A stretch of 64,000 nt of DNA, from the NCBI GenBank assembly GCA_000004985.1, contig GG738903.1. The stretch is one strand, 5' to 3'. Shown here piece after piece: positions 5,959 through 55,207 of this stretch. Each line of letters opens with the position of its first letter. The first letter of the stretch is position 1. A model generated the notes under the pieces. It did not search any database and was not told the origin of the DNA. It worked only from the letters and a program-made list of their open reading frames with translations. This DNA is from Naegleria gruberi. Lineage: Eukaryota. The translations under genes were made by a program, and so were the position numbers.

Positions 5959-6807
5959 TTAAAAATAAAATAATTTTTCAAACCTACCAATACAGGAAGG
6001 ACAATTAGTAACCTTCCACGACTGCAAAGCTTCCGAATCACTAATCACCACATGAACCTTATTATTCTTAATCAATTCAAATTGTTCATCAAAAGATGTA
6101 AAAATTTTCTTGGCAAGTGGCAGCGTTTGATTCGCCAATGTTTCATAATAAGTTCCAAAATATGCTGCAACGATAATATCAGGCGAATTCAACTGTGAAA
6201 TATCTTTCAAATTTGCAAAAGTTGCATTATTTTCCTTATTTAGTAACGTTCGTAAAAATCCATTTGCAGTAGATCCATATCCACAATCAGAAAACTGAAC
6301 CTTGGACCTTCTCTCTGTAGTATATGTCGAATCAGCAACTGAAACATCACATTCCTCAGTTTCCACTGCCTTCTTCATCGATTCAAAGAATCCATCAGTG
6401 GCATTTACATATACGAAACGAGTTGCTAGGGAAGTTCCATATTTTGAGTTGATTGCACTCACTAATTCCAATCCAACCCTTTTGTAAATATCTGCCCACA
6501 TTGTGTCAGAAGTTACACCATCATAGCAGAGCTTTAATTCTTTAACTGAGCTTGGAATGGGAAATTTGGTTGGCCAACTGGGATTACTGGTGCACGCAGG
6601 AACACTGAATGCAACAGTATTGGCAATATAATTAATAAACGATTTGGAGGAAGACACTTGTTTCATGGCTGCATTAATCATTTGGTTGAATTCGATGGAA
6701 ACTAGCTGGTTAGGGATTGTAGATGTTTGACAGTGAATTGCCTTCCAATAAAACATTAGAAAGAGGATAATGGGAAGAGCTCTCATTGATAACGACATTT
6801 TTTTCAA
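5959..6807 (-). CDS. Secreted solute-binding protein, periplasmic-binding-protein type II / ionotropic-glutamate-receptor ligand-binding-domain-like (SBP_bac_3-like)
   Basis: 282 aa with signal peptide. The segment …VADSTYTTERRSKVQFSDCGYGSTANGFL… resembles the T-I-T-x-E-R…D-F-S hinge motif of family-3 solute-binding proteins and the iGluR S1 lobe. Both lobes are contiguous with no TM segments. A GTAGGT inside the last codons could be a donor, but nothing convincing lies downstream. Confidence 0.5.
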   Translation of the reverse strand: MKKMSLSMRALPIILFLMFYWKAIHCQTSTIPNQLVSIEFNQMINAAMKQVSSSKSFINYIANTVAFSVPACTSNPSWPTKFPIPSSVKELKLCYDGVTSDTMWADIYKRVGLELVSAINSKYGTSLATRFVYVNATDGFFESMKKAVETEECDVSVADSTYTTERRSKVQFSDCGYGSTANGFLRTLLNKENNATFANLKDISQLNSPDIIVAAYFGTYYETLANQTLPLAKKIFTSFDEQFELIKNNKVHVVISDSEALQSWKVTNCPSCIGRFEKLFYF

Positions 6808-19989: not shown

Positions 19990-20886
19990 TTATTCAACAA
20001 CATCACCACCATTAACATGAATGGTTTGACCAGTTACGTATGAAGAATCCTTACTTGCCAAGTAGACATAAGCTGTGGCGCATTCAAATGGTTGACCAGC
20101 TCGACCCAAAGGAGTAGATTTACCAAATTCCTTCATCTTATCCTCAGGGAATGTACTTGGAATAAGTGGAGTCCAGATTGGACCAGGAGCAACACTATTG
20201 ACAAGAATACCTCTTGAAGCCAAATTACTTGCCAATGATCGAGTGAAGGTAGTGATTGCTCCCTTAGTGGAAGAGTAATCCAATAAGACATCCTTGCCTC
20301 TGTAGGAAGTTACACTGGTAGTATTGATGATTCTACCGGTTTGATCTGGAAGATACTTGAGTGCAGCTCTTGCCATGTAGAAATAGGAAAAGATATTTGT
20401 TTTGAAGGTATTTTCCAGTTGTTCATCACTGATATCTGTCAAATCTTGTTGAACAGTCTGAGTAGCTGCATTATTGACGAGAATGTCGAGTTTGGAGAAT
20501 TCCTTAACTGTCTTTTCAACTGCCTGATTACAAAAATCAGAAGTTCTAACATCTCCTGGAATAAGAAGACATTTTCTTCCTTCCTTTTCAATGAGTTGTT
20601 TTGTTTCTTGAGCATCCTTCTCCTCTTCCTTCAAGTAGACAATTGCCACATTGGCTCCTTCTCTGGCAAAGAGGATTGAAACTGAACGTCCAATTCCTGA
20701 ATCACCTCCAGTAATGAGAGCAACCTTGTCACGTAACTTGTTAGATCCTTTGTAATAGTCTGGATCGTCGTATTGTGGAGCAGTGAGCATGACATGCTCA
20801 AGACCTGGTGGTGATTGTTCTGGTTGCTTTCTGACTTCCTCCTTTGAGAATGAGGTTGGTTTGGATGATATTTGGCCAGTTGACAT
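19990..20886 (-). CDS. Short-chain dehydrogenase/reductase, classical SDR (bacterial YghA / general-stress-protein-39-like)
   Basis: 298 aa. Cofactor-binding motif TGGDSGIG, NNAA motif, catalytic YSSTKGA (YxxxK) and PGPIWTPL. The long N-terminal extension before the Rossmann fold is typical of the YghA/GS39 subgroup. True ATG start. Confidence 0.8.
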   Translation of the reverse strand: MSTGQISSKPTSFSKEEVRKQPEQSPPGLEHVMLTAPQYDDPDYYKGSNKLRDKVALITGGDSGIGRSVSILFAREGANVAIVYLKEEEKDAQETKQLIEKEGRKCLLIPGDVRTSDFCNQAVEKTVKEFSKLDILVNNAATQTVQQDLTDISDEQLENTFKTNIFSYFYMARAALKYLPDQTGRIINTTSVTSYRGKDVLLDYSSTKGAITTFTRSLASNLASRGILVNSVAPGPIWTPLIPSTFPEDKMKEFGKSTPLGRAGQPFECATAYVYLASKDSSYVTGQTIHVNGGDVVE

Positions 20887-23439: not shown

Positions 23440-24459
23440 CGATCGAGGAATAATAAACTAAAACTAAAGGAAAGTCTATACATTAATTTAGTTTTAATTA
23501 TTATTTACAAATTATTAGTTTTTAAATGACTATTTTCCAAGGGCCTTATTTAACAATTCCACAGTGTGTTTCCAAACTGTTTCTCTGATACTATCGCTAT
23601 GACTCTTTGTCACTTTTGCTGGCTCTCCATGTTCATCCAATAAATGGAAACCCTTCCGTGTCGATTCTGAACTTAATCCCTTGTAAATATTGTCGGCACA
23701 TTGTTCTGGAGATCTGGCAAAGTTTTGGAAGAAACGTGTGGTCCATCTCACGACAGCTGGCATTTCACGTCCCCATTGTGTGGCAATGAATCCAGGAGCT
23801 TGATGAATGAATGCAATATTTTGATTGCCTTCCTCTTTGGATAATTGATCCATGGCTAGATCATTGTAAAATCCAGCTGCATCTGCTGCATTCTTCAATG
23901 TAAAATTGTGTTTCAAATCCAAATCATCCAATTTAGTGTAAGGTGAATGAACACCAGCTGATAAAACAGTCAAGACTCTCACATCTGAATTCTTTGATGT
24001 CAATCTCAATAAATCTTGCAATTGTCTCACAAACATAACTCTTCCATAATAATGAAGTGCCAATTTAACATCAATTCCTTCCTTTGTTTCTGTTCTTCCA
24101 TTCATACTTGCAATTCCCTGTGAGAGAACACAATAATCCAATCGATCATGATTTTGTTTATATTCCTCACACACTTTTTCAATATCCTTCATGAGAGAGG
24201 CATCCACTTTGATCATTTCAAACTTTCCTTCTGGATTCAATTTTTTCATTTCTTCAATAATTTCCTTTCCTGCTTCTTCACTTCTTCCCATAATTGAAAC
24301 ATTGAATTTTTGAGAGGCAAATTTAATTGCCAATGCTCTTCCGATACCTGATGTACCTCCAACACACAGTGCTTGTTTAGTAGCCATTTTTGTTTCTGAT
24401 AAATTTGTAGAGATGATTGTTGTTTTGTTTTTTTTTGAAATTATTTGAGAGATTTGCAA
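23440..24459. repeat. Copy A of a ~1.1-kb inverted segmental duplication (SDR gene plus proximal promoter plus ~75 bp of 3' UTR)
   Basis: Reverse complement matches 36088..37110. It is identical over the 5' two-thirds of the CDS and the proximal promoter, ~95% over the 3' UTR, and visibly diverged in the 3' third of the CDS. Confidence 0.8.
23530..24387 (-). CDS. Short-chain dehydrogenase/reductase, inverted paralog A of 36176..37036
   Basis: N-terminal TGxxxGIG-type motif (VGGTSGIGRALAI), NAG/Rossmann core, Tyr/Lys region. The first ~205 codons and ~75 bp of 5' flank are nucleotide-identical to the + strand copy at 36176. The ORF-track extension to 24576 is an open frame upstream of the conserved ATG (MATKQALCVGG) and is not supported by the paralog. 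Confidence 0.75.
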   Translation of the reverse strand: MATKQALCVGGTSGIGRALAIKFASQKFNVSIMGRSEEAGKEIIEEMKKLNPEGKFEMIKVDASLMKDIEKVCEEYKQNHDRLDYCVLSQGIASMNGRTETKEGIDVKLALHYYGRVMFVRQLQDLLRLTSKNSDVRVLTVLSAGVHSPYTKLDDLDLKHNFTLKNAADAAGFYNDLAMDQLSKEEGNQNIAFIHQAPGFIATQWGREMPAVVRWTTRFFQNFARSPEQCADNIYKGLSSESTRKGFHLLDEHGEPAKVTKSHSDSIRETVWKHTVELLNKALGK

Positions 24460-25574
24460 GAAGTTTTTATTCGCTGCGTTCATCCGGGAAGACTTTGAGG
24501 CATAAGTACAAAAAAATTGATAAACACCACTGGTCCCAGCACAATTTGACCCTCCACCATTGTTAATCTGAGTCATCTCTCATCAGGAAATCTTCTCTCT
24601 TCAACCTCTGCGTATTGGATGGTACTTCTCTTGTTTGAATGTATTTTGAAGGTTCCAGTTGATAACCGAAACGATATGTTCTGAGCACTCTTTCCAGCAT
24701 AGAAGCTTTGAAAGTATGCTCAGCACATAATTGACATCATGATAAATTATTGGAAAGTGAGCAATCATGGTTGTTCAACACTGTAGTTCCTTCTTTCGTC
24801 AGCAAAATGAACAGAAAGTTATACCACTCACCATATTTATAAATAATCTATTTTTATTAATTGCTATTTTTATTATTTTTTAATTGAAATTAATTTTTAT
24901 TAACATTAATTTCAATTAAAAAAAAATGCCTAAACCAAATCATCTGATCCTGAACCATGGCAGTTAATGAAGAAAGTAAGTAGTTTATAGTAAATAATTA
25001 ACAATTTGAACAGAATTAATTGAGTTATTCAGTGAAACTCAAAAACAAGCCTAAATCCAATTTAAACTAAAACAATTGATCAACGTAAGTTTTTTTATCA
25101 TTTCAACTTTTATTTAACTAAAAACCTAGTCCGCACAATCAAACCAGCAACAGCAGTCATTAACAAATGTAAGTTTAAACCGATTTATTTATTGATGATT
25201 AACATATTTTTTTGTTAAATATCTGAAATTTTCAACTGTCACAAAGAGAAGGGTATTGAGTTGATTCATTAGTTGTAAGTCACTTTTCTTTTATTGTTAT
25301 TAATTCAAAACTAACAAGAATACATTATTGAAGAGCCCTTAACTGACCCGAAGAGGATGATCTTGAAGAAGGCTGACAGAACTCATGGTGCTTCAAATCA
25401 ACTGTTTCTTCTTGGCCTTTTCGTTAGCACTGAATCAATGATGATTAAGCTTATATTACGGCTGTGATGTGGTGCCATTTTTTTGTTGATTACTTCCAAT
25501 TTATTTAGGTTGACCACAACTATTTTCAATAAACATTTTTCTTCAACTACAAGTCAAATCAAGTCTTCTGAGAA

Positions 25575-25867: not shown

Positions 25868-27503
25868 TCAATTTCCAATAACTTCAGAATAGTAATTAGT
25901 GCTAGATTGTTCTGGATGATGATGAAGAAGAAGTGGTGAATGATTGGAGGAAAAATTTTGTTTGGATTTGAAACAACAGGAATAGCAAGATTTCAATTCA
26001 TCCATTTCGAATTCAATGTTGAGTAAACTGGCTGTAACGAGAAGGAGAATTAAGCTTGATAATATGTCGAGGGTTTGTTTCAGAGCACTTTCATTGGAAA
26101 TGCCAAGACTTAGGGCAATAGAAATGCAGAATGCAATGTAAACTAGAGTGATAAATACAAGATATTTGGCAAACTGAAAGATTTCGAATATAATTTAGAA
26201 AAGGTTAATGAAGAAACATACCTGACTTTTCCAAATGCTCACATCTGAAACTTTCTTCAGTGCTCTTCCAATAATTATTCCAAAAATTACGAATACTATT
26301 CAAATTGTAAATAGATTGCGAACCATTTCATAACTTACCTAATAGAGCAAGTGAAAATCCATTCAAAAAGTAAACTTTGGTCAAGACACGTTCCTTTGGC
26401 AAAACAAGAAGCATAGTTATTGGAACTGCAACTCCAAAAAATGACATTAGAAATGGAATTCCATAAATCAACAAGCTGTAAATTAAATTCTTCTTATTGA
26501 AAAAAACCAAAACCTTCCTCATCCAACCTCCCAACCATGAGAAGAGTGCCAACAATAATATAATATTCAAACAATCAATAATAGTTGGTACAATTAAGGC
26601 AATACCGTCTTCTGGATCTAACACAACAGCAAACATGTAAAATATTGCCTCTATCAATAATTTGAGCATTGTGTAAGAAATGGTGAGCATGTGAAAGAAT
26701 GACTTTGTTCTGATTGAATGGACCAGTTTTGGAATAAACACAATAAATAATCCAATAAAAAACTCTCCAACAATAATAGATTCCAACAATGCACGAATGG
26801 CAATGTGAATTATTTTGTCACTATTATAAGGTAAACATTTTGGTTGGTAGTATCCATTTGATAAACAAGTGCAATAGTAGGAAAATTCATTTTTGGACAG
26901 TTCACTTGTTTTAGATTTTGAATTATTGAACAGGAATGGAATTCCATATTCGAATGTTCCACAAAATAGCATTGAAGTTGGAAAATTGGTAATGGCCTGT
27001 TGTACAATCTCATTGTTTGCTTTACATTCCCTTCTCCTCACCAAATCTCTAAACACAACACTGTTATTTCCACAATATTGACATGCATTGATCCATTCCT
27101 CAACTGAACTATCCGAATGTTTCATCAAATTGTGCATGGAATTTTCTGGTAATCCACCACATAATACATCTATACAAGTTCTATTCCACTTGACCTCCAA
27201 ATTCCTAATCTTTTTGCAAATATTTTCATTCGAAACAATATTAATTCGTTCACCATCCCACTTGACCTTCTCCGTATAAAGTACATCTTCACATGAAAAT
27301 CCATCAGGAATCCAACTTTCAATATAAATATCATCAATTGAACCCGACATTTTCGAAGAAACTCCTGAACATTGCTGAAAGAAAGGATTCAGCCACTGCA
27401 AAGAGTAAACATTACCAGAAATAAAAATTAAAATAATTAAAAGACTGATCACACTTCCCAATGATGTAGAAGAGATGTTCTTGTGAGATTCAAATCGATG
27501 CAT
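25868..27503 (-). CDS. Seven-TM receptor with N-terminal signal peptide and Cys-rich extracellular domain (Frizzled/CRD-like architecture), three exons: 27503..26338, 26294..26221, 26172..25868
   Basis: Exon 1 ORF (391 aa) has a signal peptide, ~14 Cys in the ectodomain and four TM helices. It ends inside a GTAAGT donor. A 43-nt intron (26295..26337, …TTGAATAG) gives exon 2, VFVIFGIIIGRALKKVSDVSIWKSQ (TM5 plus basic loop). A 48-nt intron (26173..26220, GTATGT…TCTTTCAG) gives exon 3 with TM6/TM7 (YLVFITLVYIAFCISIAL, ILSSLILLLVTASLL) and a Cys-rich tail to the stop at 25868. All phases are consistent. Confidence 0.6.
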
Positions 27504-29002: not shown

Positions 29003-29809
29003 ATGGGAAGTGCTTGTTCTTCGACCTCTAATGTTGCCGAAAAGGAAAAAGTTGAGGATGAACCAAAGACTCACAGAAGTACTAAGAAGGAATCATTCAA
29101 GAAGGAGCCACCAAAGGAACAAAAAGATCATGATGATAACAAATCAACAACCTCATCAAAATCGAGTAAATCAGGAAAACATAAACCAGCTAAGGTAGAG
29201 GAACAGGCAAAAGAAGTGCAAGCTGAAGAGGAAACTACATCGGAGAAAAAACAAGAAGAAACAAGTGAATGTGGATCGAATTCACCTCCAAAAATTGAGG
29301 AAAAGGCAGAAATTGAAGAGGAAGCTGAAGAAATTGAAAACAAGGAAGAAGAAGATAAGGAGGAAAGTGAAGAGGAAGCCGAAGAAGTAGACAATAAGGA
29401 GGAAGAAAATAAGGAAGAAGAGGCAAATGAGGAAGTAGAAGAGGAAGCTGAAGAAGTAGAAAACAAGGAGGAAGAAAATATGGAAGAAAATGAAGAAGAA
29501 TCATCTGAAAAGGTAGAAGAAGATTTGGAAAAGTTACAGGAAGATATTGAAAAGGTTGAGCAGGCTCTCGAAGAAGCTGAAGAACAACTTGATGAGCTTG
29601 AAAAGGAAGAAGAAAACCAAGAAGAAGCCAATGAAGAAGCAGAAGAACAACAGGAAGAAGAGCAGGAAGAGAAGGCAGCTCTCGATGAAGAGGAAGGAGA
29701 TGTAATGCAACCAGAAGATGACAATATTCAAGGTCTTGACAACCAAGAAGATGAACAAGCCGAAGCTGAACCAGAAGCAGAAGTTCAGGGTGGAGGTGAC
29801 GATGAATAA
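29003..29809 (+). CDS. Acidic Glu/Lys-rich protein with an N-terminal dual-acylation motif (MGSACSS: myristoyl-Gly2, palmitoyl-Cys5)
   Basis: 268 aa, more than 40% Glu. Tandem EEEAEEVENKEEEN-like units from GAA/GAG-rich DNA. Starts MGSACSSTSN at a true ATG. Confidence 0.55.
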   Translation: MGSACSSTSNVAEKEKVEDEPKTHRSTKKESFKKEPPKEQKDHDDNKSTTSSKSSKSGKHKPAKVEEQAKEVQAEEETTSEKKQEETSECGSNSPPKIEEKAEIEEEAEEIENKEEEDKEESEEEAEEVDNKEEENKEEEANEEVEEEAEEVENKEEENMEENEEESSEKVEEDLEKLQEDIEKVEQALEEAEEQLDELEKEEENQEEANEEAEEQQEEEQEEKAALDEEEGDVMQPEDDNIQGLDNQEDEQAEAEPEAEVQGGGDDE

Positions 29810-36087: not shown

Positions 36088-37110
36088 CAAATCTCTCAAA
36101 TAATTTCAAAAAAAAACAAAACAAACAACATCTCTCTCATAGCTAATCATCTCTACAAATTTATCAAGAAACAAAATGGCTACTAAACAAGCACTGTGTG
36201 TTGGAGGTACATCAGGTATCGGAAGAGCATTGGCAATTAAATTTGCCTCTCAAAAATTCAATGTTTCAATCATGGGAAGAAGTGAAGAAGCAGGAAAGGA
36301 AATTATTGAAGAAATGAAAAAATTGAATCCAGAAGGAAAGTTTGAAATGATTAAAGTGGATGCCTCTCTCATGAAGGATATTGAAAAAGTGTGTGAGGAA
36401 TATAAACAAAATCATGATCGATTGGATTATTGTGTTCTTTCACAGGGAATTGCAAGTATGAATGGAAGAACAGAAACAAAGGAAGGAATTGATGTAAAAT
36501 TGGCACTTCATTATTATGGAAGAGTTATGTTTGTGAGACAATTGCAAGATTTATTGAGATTGACATCAAAAAATTCAGATGTGAGAGTCTTGACAGTTTT
36601 ATCAGCTGGTGTTCATTCACCTTACACCAAATTGGATGATTTGGATTTGAAACATAACTTTACATTGAAGAATGCAGCAGATGCAGCTGGATTTTACAAT
36701 GATCTCGCCATGGATCAATTATCCAAAGAGGAAGGCAATCAAAATATTGCATTCATTCATCAAGCTCCTGGAATTGTGGCTACTCAATGGGGTCGTGATT
36801 TTCCAACTGTTTTGAGATGGGCATGTGAAGTTGTCAAGGTAGTGGCTGCTAAATCTCCTGAGAAATATGCTGAATATACTTATAATGCATTGAGTTCAGA
36901 TTCTACACGAAAGGGCTTCCATTTATTGAATCAATACGGAGAGCCAGCAAGTGTGACAAAGAGTCATACTGATAATATCAGAGAAACAGTTTGGAAACAC
37001 ACTGTAGAATTGTTAAATAAGGCCCTTGGAAAATAATCATTTAAAAACTAATAATTTGTAAATAATAAACTAAAACTAAATTAATTTCCTAATTTCATTT
37101 GGATAGCTCT
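36088..37110. repeat. Copy B of the ~1.1-kb inverted segmental duplication carrying the SDR gene
   Basis: See copy A (23440..24459). Shared proximal promoter …AAATCTCTCAAATAATTTCAAAAAAAAACAAAACAA…ATCATCTCTACAAATTTATCA(A)GAAACAAAATG. Shared 3' UTR TTAAATAAGGCCCTTGGAAAATA(G/A)TCATTTAAAAACTAATAATTTGTAAATAATAA…. Confidence 0.8.
36176..37036 (+). CDS. Short-chain dehydrogenase/reductase, inverted paralog B of 23530..24387
   Basis: 286 aa. Residues 1-205 are identical to copy A (MATKQALCVGGTSGIGRALAIKFASQKF…FIHQAPG). The C-terminal ~80 residues are ~70% identical (IVATQWGRDFPTVLRWACEVVKVV… versus FIATQWGREMPAVVRWTTRFFQNF…). Confidence 0.75.
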   Translation: MATKQALCVGGTSGIGRALAIKFASQKFNVSIMGRSEEAGKEIIEEMKKLNPEGKFEMIKVDASLMKDIEKVCEEYKQNHDRLDYCVLSQGIASMNGRTETKEGIDVKLALHYYGRVMFVRQLQDLLRLTSKNSDVRVLTVLSAGVHSPYTKLDDLDLKHNFTLKNAADAAGFYNDLAMDQLSKEEGNQNIAFIHQAPGIVATQWGRDFPTVLRWACEVVKVVAAKSPEKYAEYTYNALSSDSTRKGFHLLNQYGEPASVTKSHTDNIRETVWKHTVELLNKALGK

Positions 37111-46591: not shown

Positions 46592-47800
46592 TTATAATTG
46601 AGAGATGGCTGATTCTTGAGGTTTTGATAAGGAAAATATGCTAATTTTGTCCCAAAGTGGAATTTCAGTGAAAATTTCTGATTGGTCAACTAGGATTGGT
46701 ATTCCACTAGTGTTTGATTTGGTTTCACTATTCACATATTCTCTAAAGTCTTCCTTTCTAATAATCTGATCTGAATTCAACGCAGATTGAGAAATGTCAT
46801 CTCGTTTCTGAATAATTTCGACACTTGTCACAGATTGTGAGCTAGCGCTGTTAAATTCAATCAATACAAAGTCCAAAGGACCAAATGAAAATGTTACAAT
46901 AATGCAAAATAAGAGGAGGGATATTTTGTGGATGAATAAACAAATAGGATAAAGTGGAATATAGTAAGCGAAAGCAAATCCTCCAAAACTCATTGAAATT
47001 AAGTTGAGAAGAGCCATGTAGAGTTGACCAAATGTTAGTAGGAGCATTTTACGACATGATTTTCTTCTCTGATCGGTTACTGGAAACTTTTGATTGAGAA
47101 TTAGCTTTCTAATTAGTAAAACAACAATTACCATATTTAGTATGGGAAAGAAGATGGTTGCCAAACAAATGATTGAAATGTAAAATCCGAAAATAACCCT
47201 TGAAATGTTGGACATGATGGTAAAACCTTCAGAATCTATCCATTTCCTTTCGGTGTCATAATATTTGAAAAGACTATAGGTTATTACTAATGGTATTACA
47301 ATTACAATAATCAAGTTGACTATTACAATAAGTGTAATACTTGTTATTTTGATAAAATCTCTCAGCCTCTGATTACCCTTATTCATTCTCATCCACTCAT
47401 GTGATTTGTTAAAATACAATCCATACAAAATTTTTGTAACAACACCAAGGCAATTGGTGCACATTACAATTGACAAGAAAAAAAGCGACTGTTCCAATGA
47501 CGCGCTAATTACTATAAGAATTTCTCCAAAATCTACAAGAATTGAAGTACCAGTCACTATCCCCACTATCTGGAACACTTCTTCCAAAGCAAAAACCAAT
47601 AAAACCATTGAATATAGCAATTTCTTATTGTAAACCATTTTTTTGTAATTCATAATGAAAATGACAAACATAAATACAGAGCAACTGGAAAATATGATGA
47701 ATCCGATACCATTCAATGGTATTCCAATGCTTGATGTCACTATATCTTCCATAGGAATCGTTGAATTGCTGCTCAGAGTTGCAAAAACGTCATTTGCCAT
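46592..47800 (-). CDS. Seven-TM receptor, member 1 of a tandem paralog family (novel family, conserved motifs VLYG.YFN.S..WMR, L.FGQ.YMAL.N and C-terminal FSFGPLD)
   Basis: 402 aa, true ATG, seven hydrophobic helices, N-glycosylated N-terminus (MANDVFATLSSNSTIP…). Shares motifs with 49028..50128, 50277..51344 and 53810..55207. Confidence 0.65.
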   Translation of the reverse strand: MANDVFATLSSNSTIPMEDIVTSSIGIPLNGIGFIIFSSCSVFMFVIFIMNYKKMVYNKKLLYSMVLLVFALEEVFQIVGIVTGTSILVDFGEILIVISASLEQSLFFLSIVMCTNCLGVVTKILYGLYFNKSHEWMRMNKGNQRLRDFIKITSITLIVIVNLIIVIVIPLVITYSLFKYYDTERKWIDSEGFTIMSNISRVIFGFYISIICLATIFFPILNMVIVVLLIRKLILNQKFPVTDQRRKSCRKMLLLTFGQLYMALLNLISMSFGGFAFAYYIPLYPICLFIHKISLLLFCIIVTFSFGPLDFVLIEFNSASSQSVTSVEIIQKRDDISQSALNSDQIIRKEDFREYVNSETKSNTSGIPILVDQSEIFTEIPLWDKISIFSLSKPQESAISQL

Positions 47801-49027: not shown

Positions 49028-50128
49028 TTACACTTTATTTGGGTCAATTGTTTCGTTTGTTTCGTCTTTTTCCACCACAATTTCTGAAACTACCTTAGTA
49101 GAAACATTTGCTTTCACATCCCTTTCCTCAATCTCAATCTTATTCATTGATTTCCTTTTTACAATATTTGCCAATTGATGTCCAAATTCAGAAACATTAT
49201 CCAGTGGTCCAAAAGAAAAGTTTACAACAATACAAAAAATGAAAATTGATGATCTGTGAATTAAAATTGAAATTACACTGAGTGGCATGACAGCACTAGC
49301 AACTCCGGCAGTAATGACACCCACTGCATTCATCATAGACATTATAACTTGACCAAAGTTCAGAATTAGCAAGTTTCGGCAGACTTTCCTTTTTTGGTCG
49401 GTTATGACACTTTGATTTTGACCAAGTAGCTTTCTAATCAACAAGACGGTGATTGTAAAGTTGAGAATTGACAAATAAAAGAATGCTGCAGATATTACAC
49501 TTCCAAGAGTTGGATGAAATATTTTTGTAAACTGTTGTATAGTAAGAACTTGACTCAAGCTCAGAATTTTCCTTCCCGGATCAATAAAAGTCAATAATGA
49601 TGAGATAAACGCATAGGGCATGCTCAAAATCAACAGCAAATTGAAAAATGCAACAATTCCAATCGTTGAAATAAGCACCACTTTCTTACCAATCGAATGA
49701 AGTTTCGAATTTCTCATCCAAGTTTGATTTTCATTAAAATACACTGCATAAAGTACTTTCGTTATAACAGCCTGACAATCCAAACATAATGTCAAGCTCA
49801 ATAAATATCCAGCAAACTCAAATCCAAGAAAAGTTCCGGTCAACCCAAGTGGACCAACAAGCAGAGCTGAAGTATACCCAATTAAACCACATAATTGATA
49901 AATCTGCTGATTTAAACAGGTAAATATCAAGAGTAGGTACATTAATCTCTTGTTTTTCACCATTTTCTTCCATTTATAGATTAGTAGAATCGTCATGGAA
50001 AGTAGAAGAAACAAGAAGAATAAAGCTCCGAGAGAATTGAGAGTAATGATGGAAATAAAGGTGCCAAGATAATCTGATTTGGCTGTAGGTGAGGCAGATG
50101 TTGTAGAGTTGGTCAATGTCGAGTTCAT
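49028..50128 (-). CDS. Seven-TM receptor, member 2 of the tandem paralog family
   Basis: 366 aa, true ATG (MNSTLTNSTTSASP…). Motifs VLYAVYFNENQTWMRNSK, LNFGQVIMSMMNAVG and FSFGPLDNVSEFGHQLANIVKRKS. Confidence 0.65.
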   Translation of the reverse strand: MNSTLTNSTTSASPTAKSDYLGTFISIITLNSLGALFFLFLLLSMTILLIYKWKKMVKNKRLMYLLLIFTCLNQQIYQLCGLIGYTSALLVGPLGLTGTFLGFEFAGYLLSLTLCLDCQAVITKVLYAVYFNENQTWMRNSKLHSIGKKVVLISTIGIVAFFNLLLILSMPYAFISSLLTFIDPGRKILSLSQVLTIQQFTKIFHPTLGSVISAAFFYLSILNFTITVLLIRKLLGQNQSVITDQKRKVCRNLLILNFGQVIMSMMNAVGVITAGVASAVMPLSVISILIHRSSIFIFCIVVNFSFGPLDNVSEFGHQLANIVKRKSMNKIEIEERDVKANVSTKVVSEIVVEKDETNETIDPNKV

Positions 50129-50276: not shown

Positions 50277-51344
50277 TTAAACTTTATTTTCTGATTCCTT
50301 ATTCGAAAGCTCTGCCTCCTTATCCTTAATATGAACATCAGTCTTAATAGAAAGAGATCTCCTCTTCACAACATTTGCCAACTGCTCACCCAATTCTGAA
50401 ACATCATCCAATGGTCCAAAAGAAAAGTTTACAAAAATACAAAAAAGGAAAATCGAAATTCTATGAGAAGCCAATCCAATCACAAATAAAACAAGAGGAA
50501 TTACAGTAGCCACTCCCATTATTATAATTCCAATGATATTGAGCAGTGCCATTAACACTTGTCCAATGCTTAAAATTATTAACTTTCTGCAACATTTCCT
50601 TTTTTGGTCAGTTATGATACTTTGACAAAGATAGAGTTTTCTGATTAGTGAAATTGAGAGAGAAAGATTAAGCACGCAAAAATATAGGAAGGAAAGTGAA
50701 ATGAGAGCTCCCAAAACTGGATGGAAAATTCCAGTAAATTGGCGAAGTGAGCTACTTTGAGATGGAGTGAGAATATCAACTTTGACAATTATGGAAAATA
50801 TAAAGGCGAAGGGGATGCTTAGTACTAATTGTAAATTAAAGATTGTTACTATGAAATACTTGTAAACTTTACAAAATTTCTAAATATGGAATTTTCTTTT
50901 GAATTTCTCATCCATGTTTGTGATTCATTAAAATATACTCCAAAAAGAACTTTAGTAATAATCGCCTGACAATTCAATAATAATGTCAAGCTCAATAAAT
51001 ATCCAGCAAACTCAAATCCAAGAAAAGTTCCATTCAACTGAGGCGGACCTTTCAAGAATGAAGTTAAATATCCAACCAATCCACAAGTTTGATAAACAAA
51101 CTGATTCAAACATGTAATTATCAACGCTATCGACATGATTCTCTTATTTTTAACCATTCCTTTCCATTGAACTATCAAGAGAATGGTCATGAAAAGAACA
51201 AGAATGAAAAAGAGAAAACTTCCCACAGAATTCAAAGTAATGAGAGATATTACTTGGGCATTGTTAGTGGATGAAACTGTAGAGTTTTCTGTTGTGTTGG
51301 TAATGTTTGATATAATCGTCGAGTTGAATATCATCTTGTTTTTT
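50277..51344 (-). pseudogene. Seven-TM receptor, member 3 of the family, split by a single-base frameshift near 50855
   Basis: N-terminal ORF 50849..51394 (first ATG 51344, MIFNSTIISNITNTT…) ends …NFVKFTSIS*. The +1 frame continues without a gap as …FIVTIFNLQLVLSIPFAFIFSII… into ORF 50277..50714, colinear with paralog 49028..50128 (…LISTIGIVAFFNLLLILSMPYAFISSLL…). There is no room for an intron, so a T-run indel is implied. Confidence 0.55.
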
Positions 51345-53809: not shown

Positions 53810-55207
53810 TTAATCATTGAGAGGAATATCAACAAAGATATCTTCATATTGTATATTATCGATTTTCGTCGTAGTAGTTTGATGATGATCAGTAGCAGTA
53901 CTCATAGTGGTATTACTGTCATTACTTTTCTTACTGTCATTACAATTGGTTGGAGCACGCAACTGATCAGTTGCAATCGCCTCCTGAGGCCCAAAGGAGC
54001 TAGTAATGTTGAAGGGTGAGTAAATGGGCTGCTTGTTTGTTGCTGTATACTTGATCATCATCATGGAAGATATTTCGCTGGCTTTTCTAAATGCCTTTGA
54101 ATCAATATTGAAAGAGTTTGAAGTTTTTTGATTGGTGAGTTGAATTTCACTGGTTTGACATGAGGATTGAGTATTATCCCCATGTGGCTTCTTCTTACCT
54201 TCCAATTTTAATTCATAATGAAAGTAATCCATAGGTCCAAAACTGAAACTCACACAAATGGCAAATAACAGAAACACAAATCTATGAATGACACCAGTCA
54301 ATATGAACAAGTATGGATACCATATACCAATAGCTCCCAAAATAATTGAGATTGAATTAATAATTGCCATGTAGAATTGACCAAATGTTAAGAGTACCAA
54401 CTTTTTACATGCATTTCTGCGAGGGATTGGGACTGGCCTGTTTTGGAGAAGGTATCTTGAGAGTAGAAGAACCAAAGTTAAATTTAACACTCCTGTAATG
54501 ATGGCACATCCAGAGTTTACAAGACCAACAATGGCCACAGAAATAATTGACCAAATGCCAAGAATACTTCCAACTCGTGTATTTCCTCCATCCATATAAT
54601 ATACCATTGAACAGATCAGAGTGAATGGAACGAGAATAATGAATGCAATAGTCCAAATTAATGTCATTCCAATTGTGTAATATTTTGTAAATATTCTAAA
54701 CTTTTCATTGAATGAATAGCTTTCTGCTCCCTTCCTCATCCATGAATGAGATTGATGAAAGTAAATTCCATACAATACTTTTGAAACCATTGCTTGAAAA
54801 TAGGTACACATTACAACAGTTGACACGAGTCCACAATAATAAATAACGAAAAATAATTGACTCAAAAATTCCTGAATATGAGTCAGTGCTCCAACATCGT
54901 GAGCTATTCCAACTCCCTGTGAGAGAATTTGCAAGATGGCTGTAAATATTAAGGAAATGTAAAAGAATCTCTTGAAGGGAATCATTTCCTTCCATCGTTT
55001 GATGAGGAGAGTGGTCATTATAATGGTCAGTATCAGATAACTCAGTATTCCAATTCCATGAGTAGTAACAGAAATGTAGTATCGTTCTATTGCAGAAGTA
55101 AAAGTTGATGATGAAATATTGTATTGATGGAAAACTATTCCTGGATTCAATGAGCCATGCTGATGCTGGTCAACAATAGAAACAGTCATCTCACGATTAT
55201 TATTCAT
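53810..55207 (-). CDS. Seven-TM receptor, member 4 of the family (most divergent, longer C-terminal tail)
   Basis: 465 aa, true ATG. Motifs VLYGIYFHQSHSWMRKG, LTFGQFYMAIINSIS and FSFGPMDYFHYE. Ser/Thr/His-rich tail. Confidence 0.65.
   Translation of the reverse strand: MNNNREMTVSIVDQHQHGSLNPGIVFHQYNISSSTFTSAIERYYISVTTHGIGILSYLILTIIMTTLLIKRWKEMIPFKRFFYISLIFTAILQILSQGVGIAHDVGALTHIQEFLSQLFFVIYYCGLVSTVVMCTYFQAMVSKVLYGIYFHQSHSWMRKGAESYSFNEKFRIFTKYYTIGMTLIWTIAFIILVPFTLICSMVYYMDGGNTRVGSILGIWSIISVAIVGLVNSGCAIITGVLNLTLVLLLSRYLLQNRPVPIPRRNACKKLVLLTFGQFYMAIINSISIILGAIGIWYPYLFILTGVIHRFVFLLFAICVSFSFGPMDYFHYELKLEGKKKPHGDNTQSSCQTSEIQLTNQKTSNSFNIDSKAFRKASEISSMMMIKYTATNKQPIYSPFNITSSFGPQEAIATDQLRAPTNCNDSKKSNDSNTTMSTATDHHQTTTTKIDNIQYEDIFVDIPLND

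Follow-up and report, generated by a model that had tools for sequence, protein, structure and literature searches.

A candidate cell-surface receptor family of Naegleria with a predicted GPCR-like fold and a cysteine-rich ectodomain

Heterotrimeric G-protein signaling in Naegleria involves a lineage-specific expansion of G-alpha subunits (PMC3971589), which include both self-activating and exchange-factor-dependent members (PMC9283941). Among candidate receptors, one cAR-like G-protein-coupled receptor (GPCR) has been named, along with unnamed seven-transmembrane (7TM) proteins without similarity to known receptors, and 28 7TM-RGS proteins have been reported in N. fowleri (PMC9283941). The 7TM-RGS proteins combine an extracellular domain with seven helices and form a multi-gene family presumed to detect external signals that feed into G-protein pathways. 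Here, we describe a gene on the minus strand of a 64,000-nt stretch of Naegleria gruberi contig GG738903.1 (assembly GCA_000004985.1; this whole stretch is hereafter called the window), located at 25868..27503, whose product probably belongs to a lineage-specific family of cell-surface receptors. It resembles the 7TM-RGS proteins in organism and in having an extracellular domain followed by seven helices. Unlike them, its family carries no RGS or other cytoplasmic domain (no match to PF00615), and a profile comparison with the 7TM-RGS open reading frame (ORF) present in the same window gave a probability of 0.2%.

The gene extends from an ATG at 27503 to a TGA stop at 25870-25868. Removal of both introns leaves one continuous frame of 1545 nt encoding 514 amino acids, which agree at every residue with XP_002671768.1 (EFC39024.1; UniProt D2VW63), a record annotated as NAEGRDRAFT_73268, "uncharacterized protein", of N. 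gruberi. The splice model is the one already in public annotation, and the gene itself is no discovery. What appears to be new, judging from the family alignments and the structure model discussed below, is an undescribed sequence family that combines a predicted GPCR fold with a new ectodomain and has no Pfam model. A second N. gruberi entry, NAEGRDRAFT_76488, located on a 12-kb scaffold, is 99% identical and has its full reading frame intact, while tblastn detected no second copy within the window. Searches of papers and their supplements did not retrieve the gene identifiers.

The three exons divide the protein as follows. Exon 1 (26339..27503, minus strand, as are all features of this gene; 1165 nt) encodes residues 1-388 and the first base of codon 389, running from the signal peptide through the ectodomain and helices 1-4 into helix 5, of which it covers the first half. 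Intron 1 (26296..26338; 43 nt, GTAAGT..AATAG) lies in phase 1 and divides a Val codon as G|TA. Exon 2 (26222..26295; 74 nt) completes helix 5, adds the conserved motif (L)KKVSD of the third cytoplasmic loop, and is followed by intron 2 (26174..26221; 48 nt, GTATGT..TTCAG), which lies in phase 0 and would introduce an in-frame stop if retained. Exon 3 (25868..26173) contributes helices 6-7, helix 8, a CxxCC cluster, a low-confidence tail, and the TGA stop. Both introns are very short, and the GC content of the window is approximately 33%, features that might recall a nematode; such an origin is ruled out by the identity of the product with an N. gruberi protein. A prokaryote-style ORF at 26328-27503 (391 aa) runs through the GTAAGT donor at 26338-26333 and terminates three codons inside intron 1 (..LLGKL*). 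The preliminary description of this locus had proposed the same three exons with introns of 43 and 48 nt, in agreement with the RefSeq product and with the intron positions and phases kept by paralogs. Its statement that this ORF ends exactly at the donor was right to within 8 nt, as the donor is present but the ORF ends inside the intron; and its view that splicing adds helices 5-7 holds for helices 6-7, which come from exon 3, but not for the first half of helix 5, which exon 1 already encodes.

The hydropathy profile of the protein shows an N-terminal core at residues 16-33, a hydrophilic region extending to about residue 227, and then seven hydrophobic segments. The N-terminal core forms part of a predicted signal peptide or signal anchor (residues ~1-34; 27402..27503), which may be cleaved at VYS|LQ, a site that fits the -3/-1 rule. 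The Cys-rich ectodomain (residues ~35-227; 26823..27401) contains three N-x-S/T sequons and 12 of the 17 Cys residues of the protein, at positions 45, 71, 96, 110, 115, 141, 144, 160, 181, 211, 213, and 223; these 12, where about 14 had originally been counted, probably form six disulfides. The seven-helix bundle (residues 228-467; 26012..26822) spans both introns and carries the conserved motif W323...W327-x-R329 at the cytoplasmic end of helix 3 (26517..26537), as well as the third-loop motif K402-K403-V404-S405-D406 (26243..26257). It is followed by a helix 8-like segment with a Cys cluster (residues 468-481; 25970..26011), in which the family motif (M/I)EF...EF...Y begins at I466 and precedes C476, C479, and C480. 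The tail, earlier called Cys-rich, does contain Cys residues, but only in this single CxxCC cluster, and the 33 residues beyond helix 8 are of low confidence. The cytoplasmic loops contain 11 Lys and Arg against one Asp or Glu, and the extracellular loops two against five, which by the positive-inside rule indicates an N-out/C-in topology. The proposed layout of signal peptide, Cys-rich ectodomain, and 7TM bundle is thus borne out by the seven hydrophobic segments, seven long helices in the structure model, and the charge distribution.

Word-indexed homolog searches, whether started from the protein or from the alignments of the family and of the ectodomain, yielded the protein's own cluster or nothing, and the family came to light only through an exhaustive HMMER search. 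This search, covering 1.84 billion cluster representatives, recovered 25 relatives at E<=1e-3, with 24-35% identity and phmmer E-values from 1.8e-33 to 6.7e-5; the family amounts to 25 clusters at 50% identity across all public data. All named relatives come from N. gruberi, N. fowleri, or N. lovaniensis and are labeled "uncharacterized", and the remainder are metagenome or SRA-assembly calls. Both N. fowleri and an N. gruberi-like contig carry tandem copies, and paralogs are only 20-30% identical. To judge from its named relatives, the family therefore appears to be small, fast-diverging, and found only in Naegleria. In these respects it is reminiscent of lineage-specific chemoreceptor-like 7TM families, such as the nematode serpentine receptors, which are likewise confined to one lineage, include tandem duplicates with paralogs 20-30% identical, and are missed by Pfam-based GPCR censuses when no dedicated model exists (method: PMC3971589). 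Those families, however, lack a large conserved Cys-rich ectodomain, and the Naegleria family is small.

Family members share an ectodomain scaffold of eight invariant and several near-invariant Cys residues, together with the motifs (D/E)WIN(Y/A)CxYC, FP.S..(F/Y)CG..(E)FGIP, and Y.C(Y/T)C....F..KC. On the cytoplasmic side, four motifs are held in common: IPK follows helix 1, W...W.R closes helix 3, the third loop carries MKKVSD(I/V)N..TS, and helix 8 carries MEF..EF..Y. In the family alignments, the window protein displays both the ectodomain and the cytoplasmic motifs, along with relatives P0004-P0027. Measured as majority fraction, conservation is highest in the third cytoplasmic loop (0.57), helix 8 (0.50), and the ectodomain (0.46), lower in the helices (0.33-0.39), and lowest in the extracellular loops (0.18-0.29).

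Structure prediction by AlphaFold2 from the single sequence was unusable (pLDDT, the predicted local distance difference test score, 43.8), whereas prediction with the 25-sequence family alignment gave a mean pLDDT of 81 and a predicted template modeling score (pTM) of 0.70. In this model, the ectodomain forms a compact beta/alpha/beta unit over residues 42-225, mostly with pLDDT >80, and seven long helices (residues 228-266, 270-294, 301-335, 340-367, 372-404, 413-436, and 443-467) are followed by a short helix 8 (470-481). The predicted helix packing, the external N-terminus, and helix 8 suggest that the bundle has a GPCR fold in the structural sense. Foldseek comparison revealed weak agreement with GPCRs (best E 2.6e-3) in which classes A, B1, B2, C, and T were mixed. 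The closest solved chains were those of the class A orphans GPR6 (8tyw_A) and GPR3 (9lyc_A), and GABA-B2, GPR156, and TAS2R14 also appeared. Other 7TM folds scored only 2-3 Z units below the GPCRs, so that GPCRs and other 7TM proteins were not sharply separated. As in GPCRs in general, the N-terminus is outside, the C-terminus is inside, and a short helix 8 is followed by cysteines; in addition, R329 precedes the end of helix 3 by six residues, which, going by the helix lengths, would be roughly the place of R3.50. Unlike GPCRs in general, the protein lacks a match to 7tm_1, 7tm_2, or 7tm_3, the class A microswitches, and the disulfide between helix 3 and the second extracellular loop, and it bears a large, unique Cys-rich ectodomain.

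The interpretation we consider probable is that the gene encodes a lineage-specific GPCR-fold cell-surface receptor with a cytoplasmic face shared by its paralogs, most plausibly linked to G proteins. According to this proposal, the protein would enter the secretory pathway via its N-terminal signal sequence and display outside the cell an ectodomain of ~190 residues with 12 Cys, probably paired in six disulfides, and glycosylation sequons. The seven-helix bundle of GPCR fold would act as an anchor, followed by an amphipathic helix 8 and the CxxCC cluster, which may be lipidated. The ectodomain would bind an extracellular ligand, and the resulting change would pass through the bundle to the cytoplasmic face, made up of the PK that follows helix 1, the W..W.R that closes helix 3, the third-loop motif MKKVSDxN, and the helix 8 motif MEF..EF..Y. 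Since this face is common to all paralogs, it may engage a common intracellular partner. A heterotrimeric G protein of Naegleria appears the most plausible candidate in view of the diversity of G-alpha subunits, the presence of exchange-factor-dependent G-alpha, and the small number of named receptors. The conserved R329, helix 8, and the Cys cluster would fit such coupling.

Several observations weigh against this interpretation. A sequence link to any GPCR family is absent from the Pfam searches, the PDB profile comparisons, and the 25 relatives. The hallmarks of class A are missing, with no Asn in helix 1, no Asp in helix 2, and no DRY, CWxP, or NPxxY motif; PF00001 is not matched either, and the conserved R329 is alone reminiscent of that class. 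Moreover, helices 6 and 7 contain no proline, and the structure model was built on a shallow alignment of 25 sequences.

A possible but less likely alternative is a seven-helix membrane protein that has a GPCR-like fold but acts without G-protein coupling. Such a protein could serve in adhesion or prey recognition with the bundle as an anchor, as an endomembrane sorting or cargo receptor, or as a lipid or sterol sensor. The lack of GPCR microswitch motifs and the unsharp separation of GPCRs from other 7TM folds are consistent with it, as is the finding that the ectodomain is the best-conserved large region. Furthermore, self-activating G-alpha subunits regulated by 7TM-RGS proteins would lessen the need for exchange-factor receptors (PMC9283941). 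However, conservation is stronger in the cytoplasmic loops and helix 8 than in the extracellular loops and the helices, which argues for a shared intracellular partner over a passive anchor. The protein does not have the character of PAQR proteins (PF03006), which are marked by an N-in/C-out topology and a Zn-binding His/Asp site and whose arrangement is excluded by the N-out topology found here, and no all-beta ectodomain of the GOLD type is predicted. A microbial rhodopsin was also considered and rejected: the only Lys in helix 7, K445, lies at its outer end, and the corresponding alignment column is not conserved in the family. The reading as a surface receptor, most plausibly G-protein-linked, is the preferred one.

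Kinship with Frizzled or adhesion receptors is far less probable. The preliminary description had likened the protein to Frizzled/cysteine-rich domain (CRD)-type or adhesion-type receptors, and a divergent Frizzled-type receptor (a CRD with a class F bundle) or adhesion-type receptor (GAIN/GPS with a class B2 bundle) now appears very improbable. The resemblance lies in the layout. As in Frizzled and Smoothened, a signal peptide, a Cys-rich ectodomain, and a 7TM bundle follow one another in that order, and as in adhesion GPCRs, a large ectodomain abuts helix 1, with a CxC located 10-15 residues ahead of it that is superficially like the CxC of GPS. Among the weak Foldseek matches to PTH1R, CRF1R, and ADGRD1 (E 0.007-0.05), which stand beside classes A and C, ADGRD1 occupies rank 22 (E 0.05), and 7TM-RGS proteins of Naegleria have been reported with GPS motifs (PMC9283941). 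Nevertheless, the window protein matched no Pfam model at E<=10, including Fz, Frizzled, GPS, GAIN, HRM, 7tm_1/2/3, Dicty_CAR, and other GPCR models, and the 25 relatives, searched one by one at E<=1, produced no recurring match but single-member noise only. Similarly, full-length and ectodomain family profiles retrieved no PDB chain of Frizzled, Smoothened, sFRP, or an adhesion GPCR at E<=10; the sole match of the ectodomain profile, to Rop (E 0.39), is spurious.

The individual features of these classes point in the same direction. The Fz CRD (PF01392) comprises ~120 residues with 10 Cys and is mainly helical, whereas the sequence and the secondary structure of the model reveal here 12 differently spaced Cys over ~180 residues in a mixed beta/alpha/beta arrangement. 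For the class F bundle, there is neither a PF01534 match nor a KTxxxW tail motif anywhere in the protein, and Frizzled and Smoothened are absent from the best structural matches. For the adhesion class, the CxC (C211, C213) leads to LSNGYYQPKC, which is not a GPS sequence, an HL-S/T autoproteolytic cleavage motif occurs nowhere in the protein, and class B 7tm_2 (PF00002) is not matched. A comparison of the ectodomain with Fz-CRD, GAIN, and other Cys-rich modules, which had been recommended for the locus, yielded no Pfam match and no CRD-containing PDB chain at E<=10, and the suggested affinity is not upheld.

Comparative evidence shows that this is a real spliced protein-coding gene under purifying selection and that its structure is a family trait. 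On its own, the peptide encoded by exons 2 and 3 is similar to family C-termini, with BLASTP E-values as low as 5e-10 against a small database. An independent environmental N. gruberi-like contig (L002) carries two tandem paralogs with introns at homologous codons and in identical phases (41 and 42 nt in phase 1; 38 and 47 nt in phase 0; GTAWGT..AG), and their removal restores helices 6-7 and the C-terminal motif. The middle exon measures 74 nt in both of these paralogs, as in the window gene, and one of them likewise has a Val codon interrupted as G|TA by intron 1. Prokaryote-style calls of many relatives break off at these intron sites; those of ten relatives continue as "..TS V.." past the intron-2 site, a read-through of GTN, and one call carries 14 extra residues, GKFQANLKINMKNQ, where intron 1 would lie. 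In N. fowleri, three tandem copies are each interrupted once, at the position of intron 2 (by 100 nt in FDP41_003040). These copies have no intron 1 and are gap-free there, so the spliced junction 1 aligns to an intronless homolog.

Selection can be gauged from a contig of a second N. gruberi-like strain (L003, from ENA), which is 96.8% identical to the window over 2.79 kb and retains both introns with all four splice sites intact. Its exons differ from the window gene by 12 substitutions in 1545 bp (0.78 per 100 bp), compared with 26 substitutions in 1106 bp (2.35 per 100 bp) for the flanks. Seven of the exon changes are synonymous and five are nonsynonymous; three of the latter fall in the low-confidence tail, and the other two are Val/Ile swaps. 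That the locus is a pseudogene or a gene-prediction artefact, its downstream "exons" being a chance continuation of the frame, is extremely improbable: although the L003 frame is cut short by a 1-nt deletion and one N. fowleri tandem copy is internally deleted, such an origin would have to accommodate significant similarity of the exon 2 and 3 peptide to family C-termini, intron positions and phases kept across paralogs and species, exons evolving about three times more slowly than the flanks with synonymous changes exceeding nonsynonymous ones, and a frame that is full and intact both in the window and in the 99% identical N. gruberi copy.

Some variation among these copies deserves mention in its own right. 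The deletion in L003 lies in a T4 run homologous to position 26404 and causes a frameshift inside helix 4, shortening the call to 374 aa (P0003), and reflects either an error of metagenome assembly or a null allele. The middle tandem copy of N. fowleri, FDP41_003041 (L001 12100-13410), annotated as a 263-aa "transmembrane protein", lacks the second half of the ectodomain and helix 1 and is probably a decaying duplicate. Near codon 12, L003 has an in-frame 3-nt insertion and the 99% identical N. gruberi copy a 3-nt deletion at the same place, indicating that the N-terminus ahead of the signal sequence is indel-polymorphic.

Within the window, the immediate neighbors of the gene encode short-chain dehydrogenases, a TM2-domain protein, NHL-repeat and B-box-NHL proteins, and ORFs without a Pfam match. 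Three short-chain dehydrogenase/reductase ORFs occur within 17 kb around the gene (19990-20886, 23530-24576 (-), and 36176-37036 (+)), and an adh_short gene is also found downstream of the L003 copy, which suggests that local synteny is conserved. Two further receptor-like architectures are present. An ORF of 686 aa at 903-2963 on the plus strand has an N-terminal hydrophobic segment, a presumed ectodomain of ~300 aa, and some six or seven hydrophobic helices between aa 329 and 568. Together with its RGS domain at aa 560-644 (PF00615, E 4.9e-5), this makes up the 7TM-RGS architecture described for Naegleria (PMC9283941). On the minus strand, three paralogous multi-TM (transmembrane) ORFs (46592-47800, 49028-50128, and 53810-55207), each with 7-8 hydrophobic segments, are 29-32% identical (BLASTP E 1e-34 to 1e-54) and have no Pfam match at E<=1 save two single-ORF noise matches (E 0.07-0.12). 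They form a loose cluster of a second orphan membrane-protein family, and the 49028-50128 ORF may have a further exon at 50280-50879. With hhalign, the gene described here shows no relation to this trio or to the 7TM-RGS ORF (probability <=1.1%). It had been held to be distinct from the neighboring 7TM family, which this comparison confirms, and to be one of three receptor architectures in the window, which is a fair claim, the three receptor-like types being mutually different. In a eukaryote, such proximity of receptor-like genes carries no functional implication.

Two other features of the window may be recorded. The ORF at 5959-6807 (-) has a weak match to SBP_bac_3, the bacterial solute-binding protein family 3 (E 1.6e-5, just under the gathering score), and may represent the ligand-binding portion of a further receptor-like gene. 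At 29297-29670 (+), the ORF 29003-29809 contains imperfect tandem repeats that are rich in purines (GAA/AAG) and have periods of 15-69 nt; they encode a Glu/Lys-rich stretch and account for the strong skew in GC and AT seen in the bin at 29-30 kb.

Since protists commonly possess orphan 7TM families restricted to a single lineage, the present family should cause a specialist only modest surprise. Eukaryote-wide GPCR censuses use Pfam models at gathering thresholds (PMC3971589), and a family without any Pfam match is invisible to them. Whether its members form an unrecognized class of true GPCRs confined to Naegleria can be put forward only tentatively. If they do, the family would supply missing exchange-factor receptors for the slow-exchanging G-alpha subunits, the 12-Cys ectodomain would represent a new ligand-binding module, and the N. 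fowleri members would offer a pathogen-specific surface target without a human homolog. As a GPCR-fold family apparently found only in Naegleria, it provides a concrete, testable candidate for part of the missing receptor layer of these organisms.

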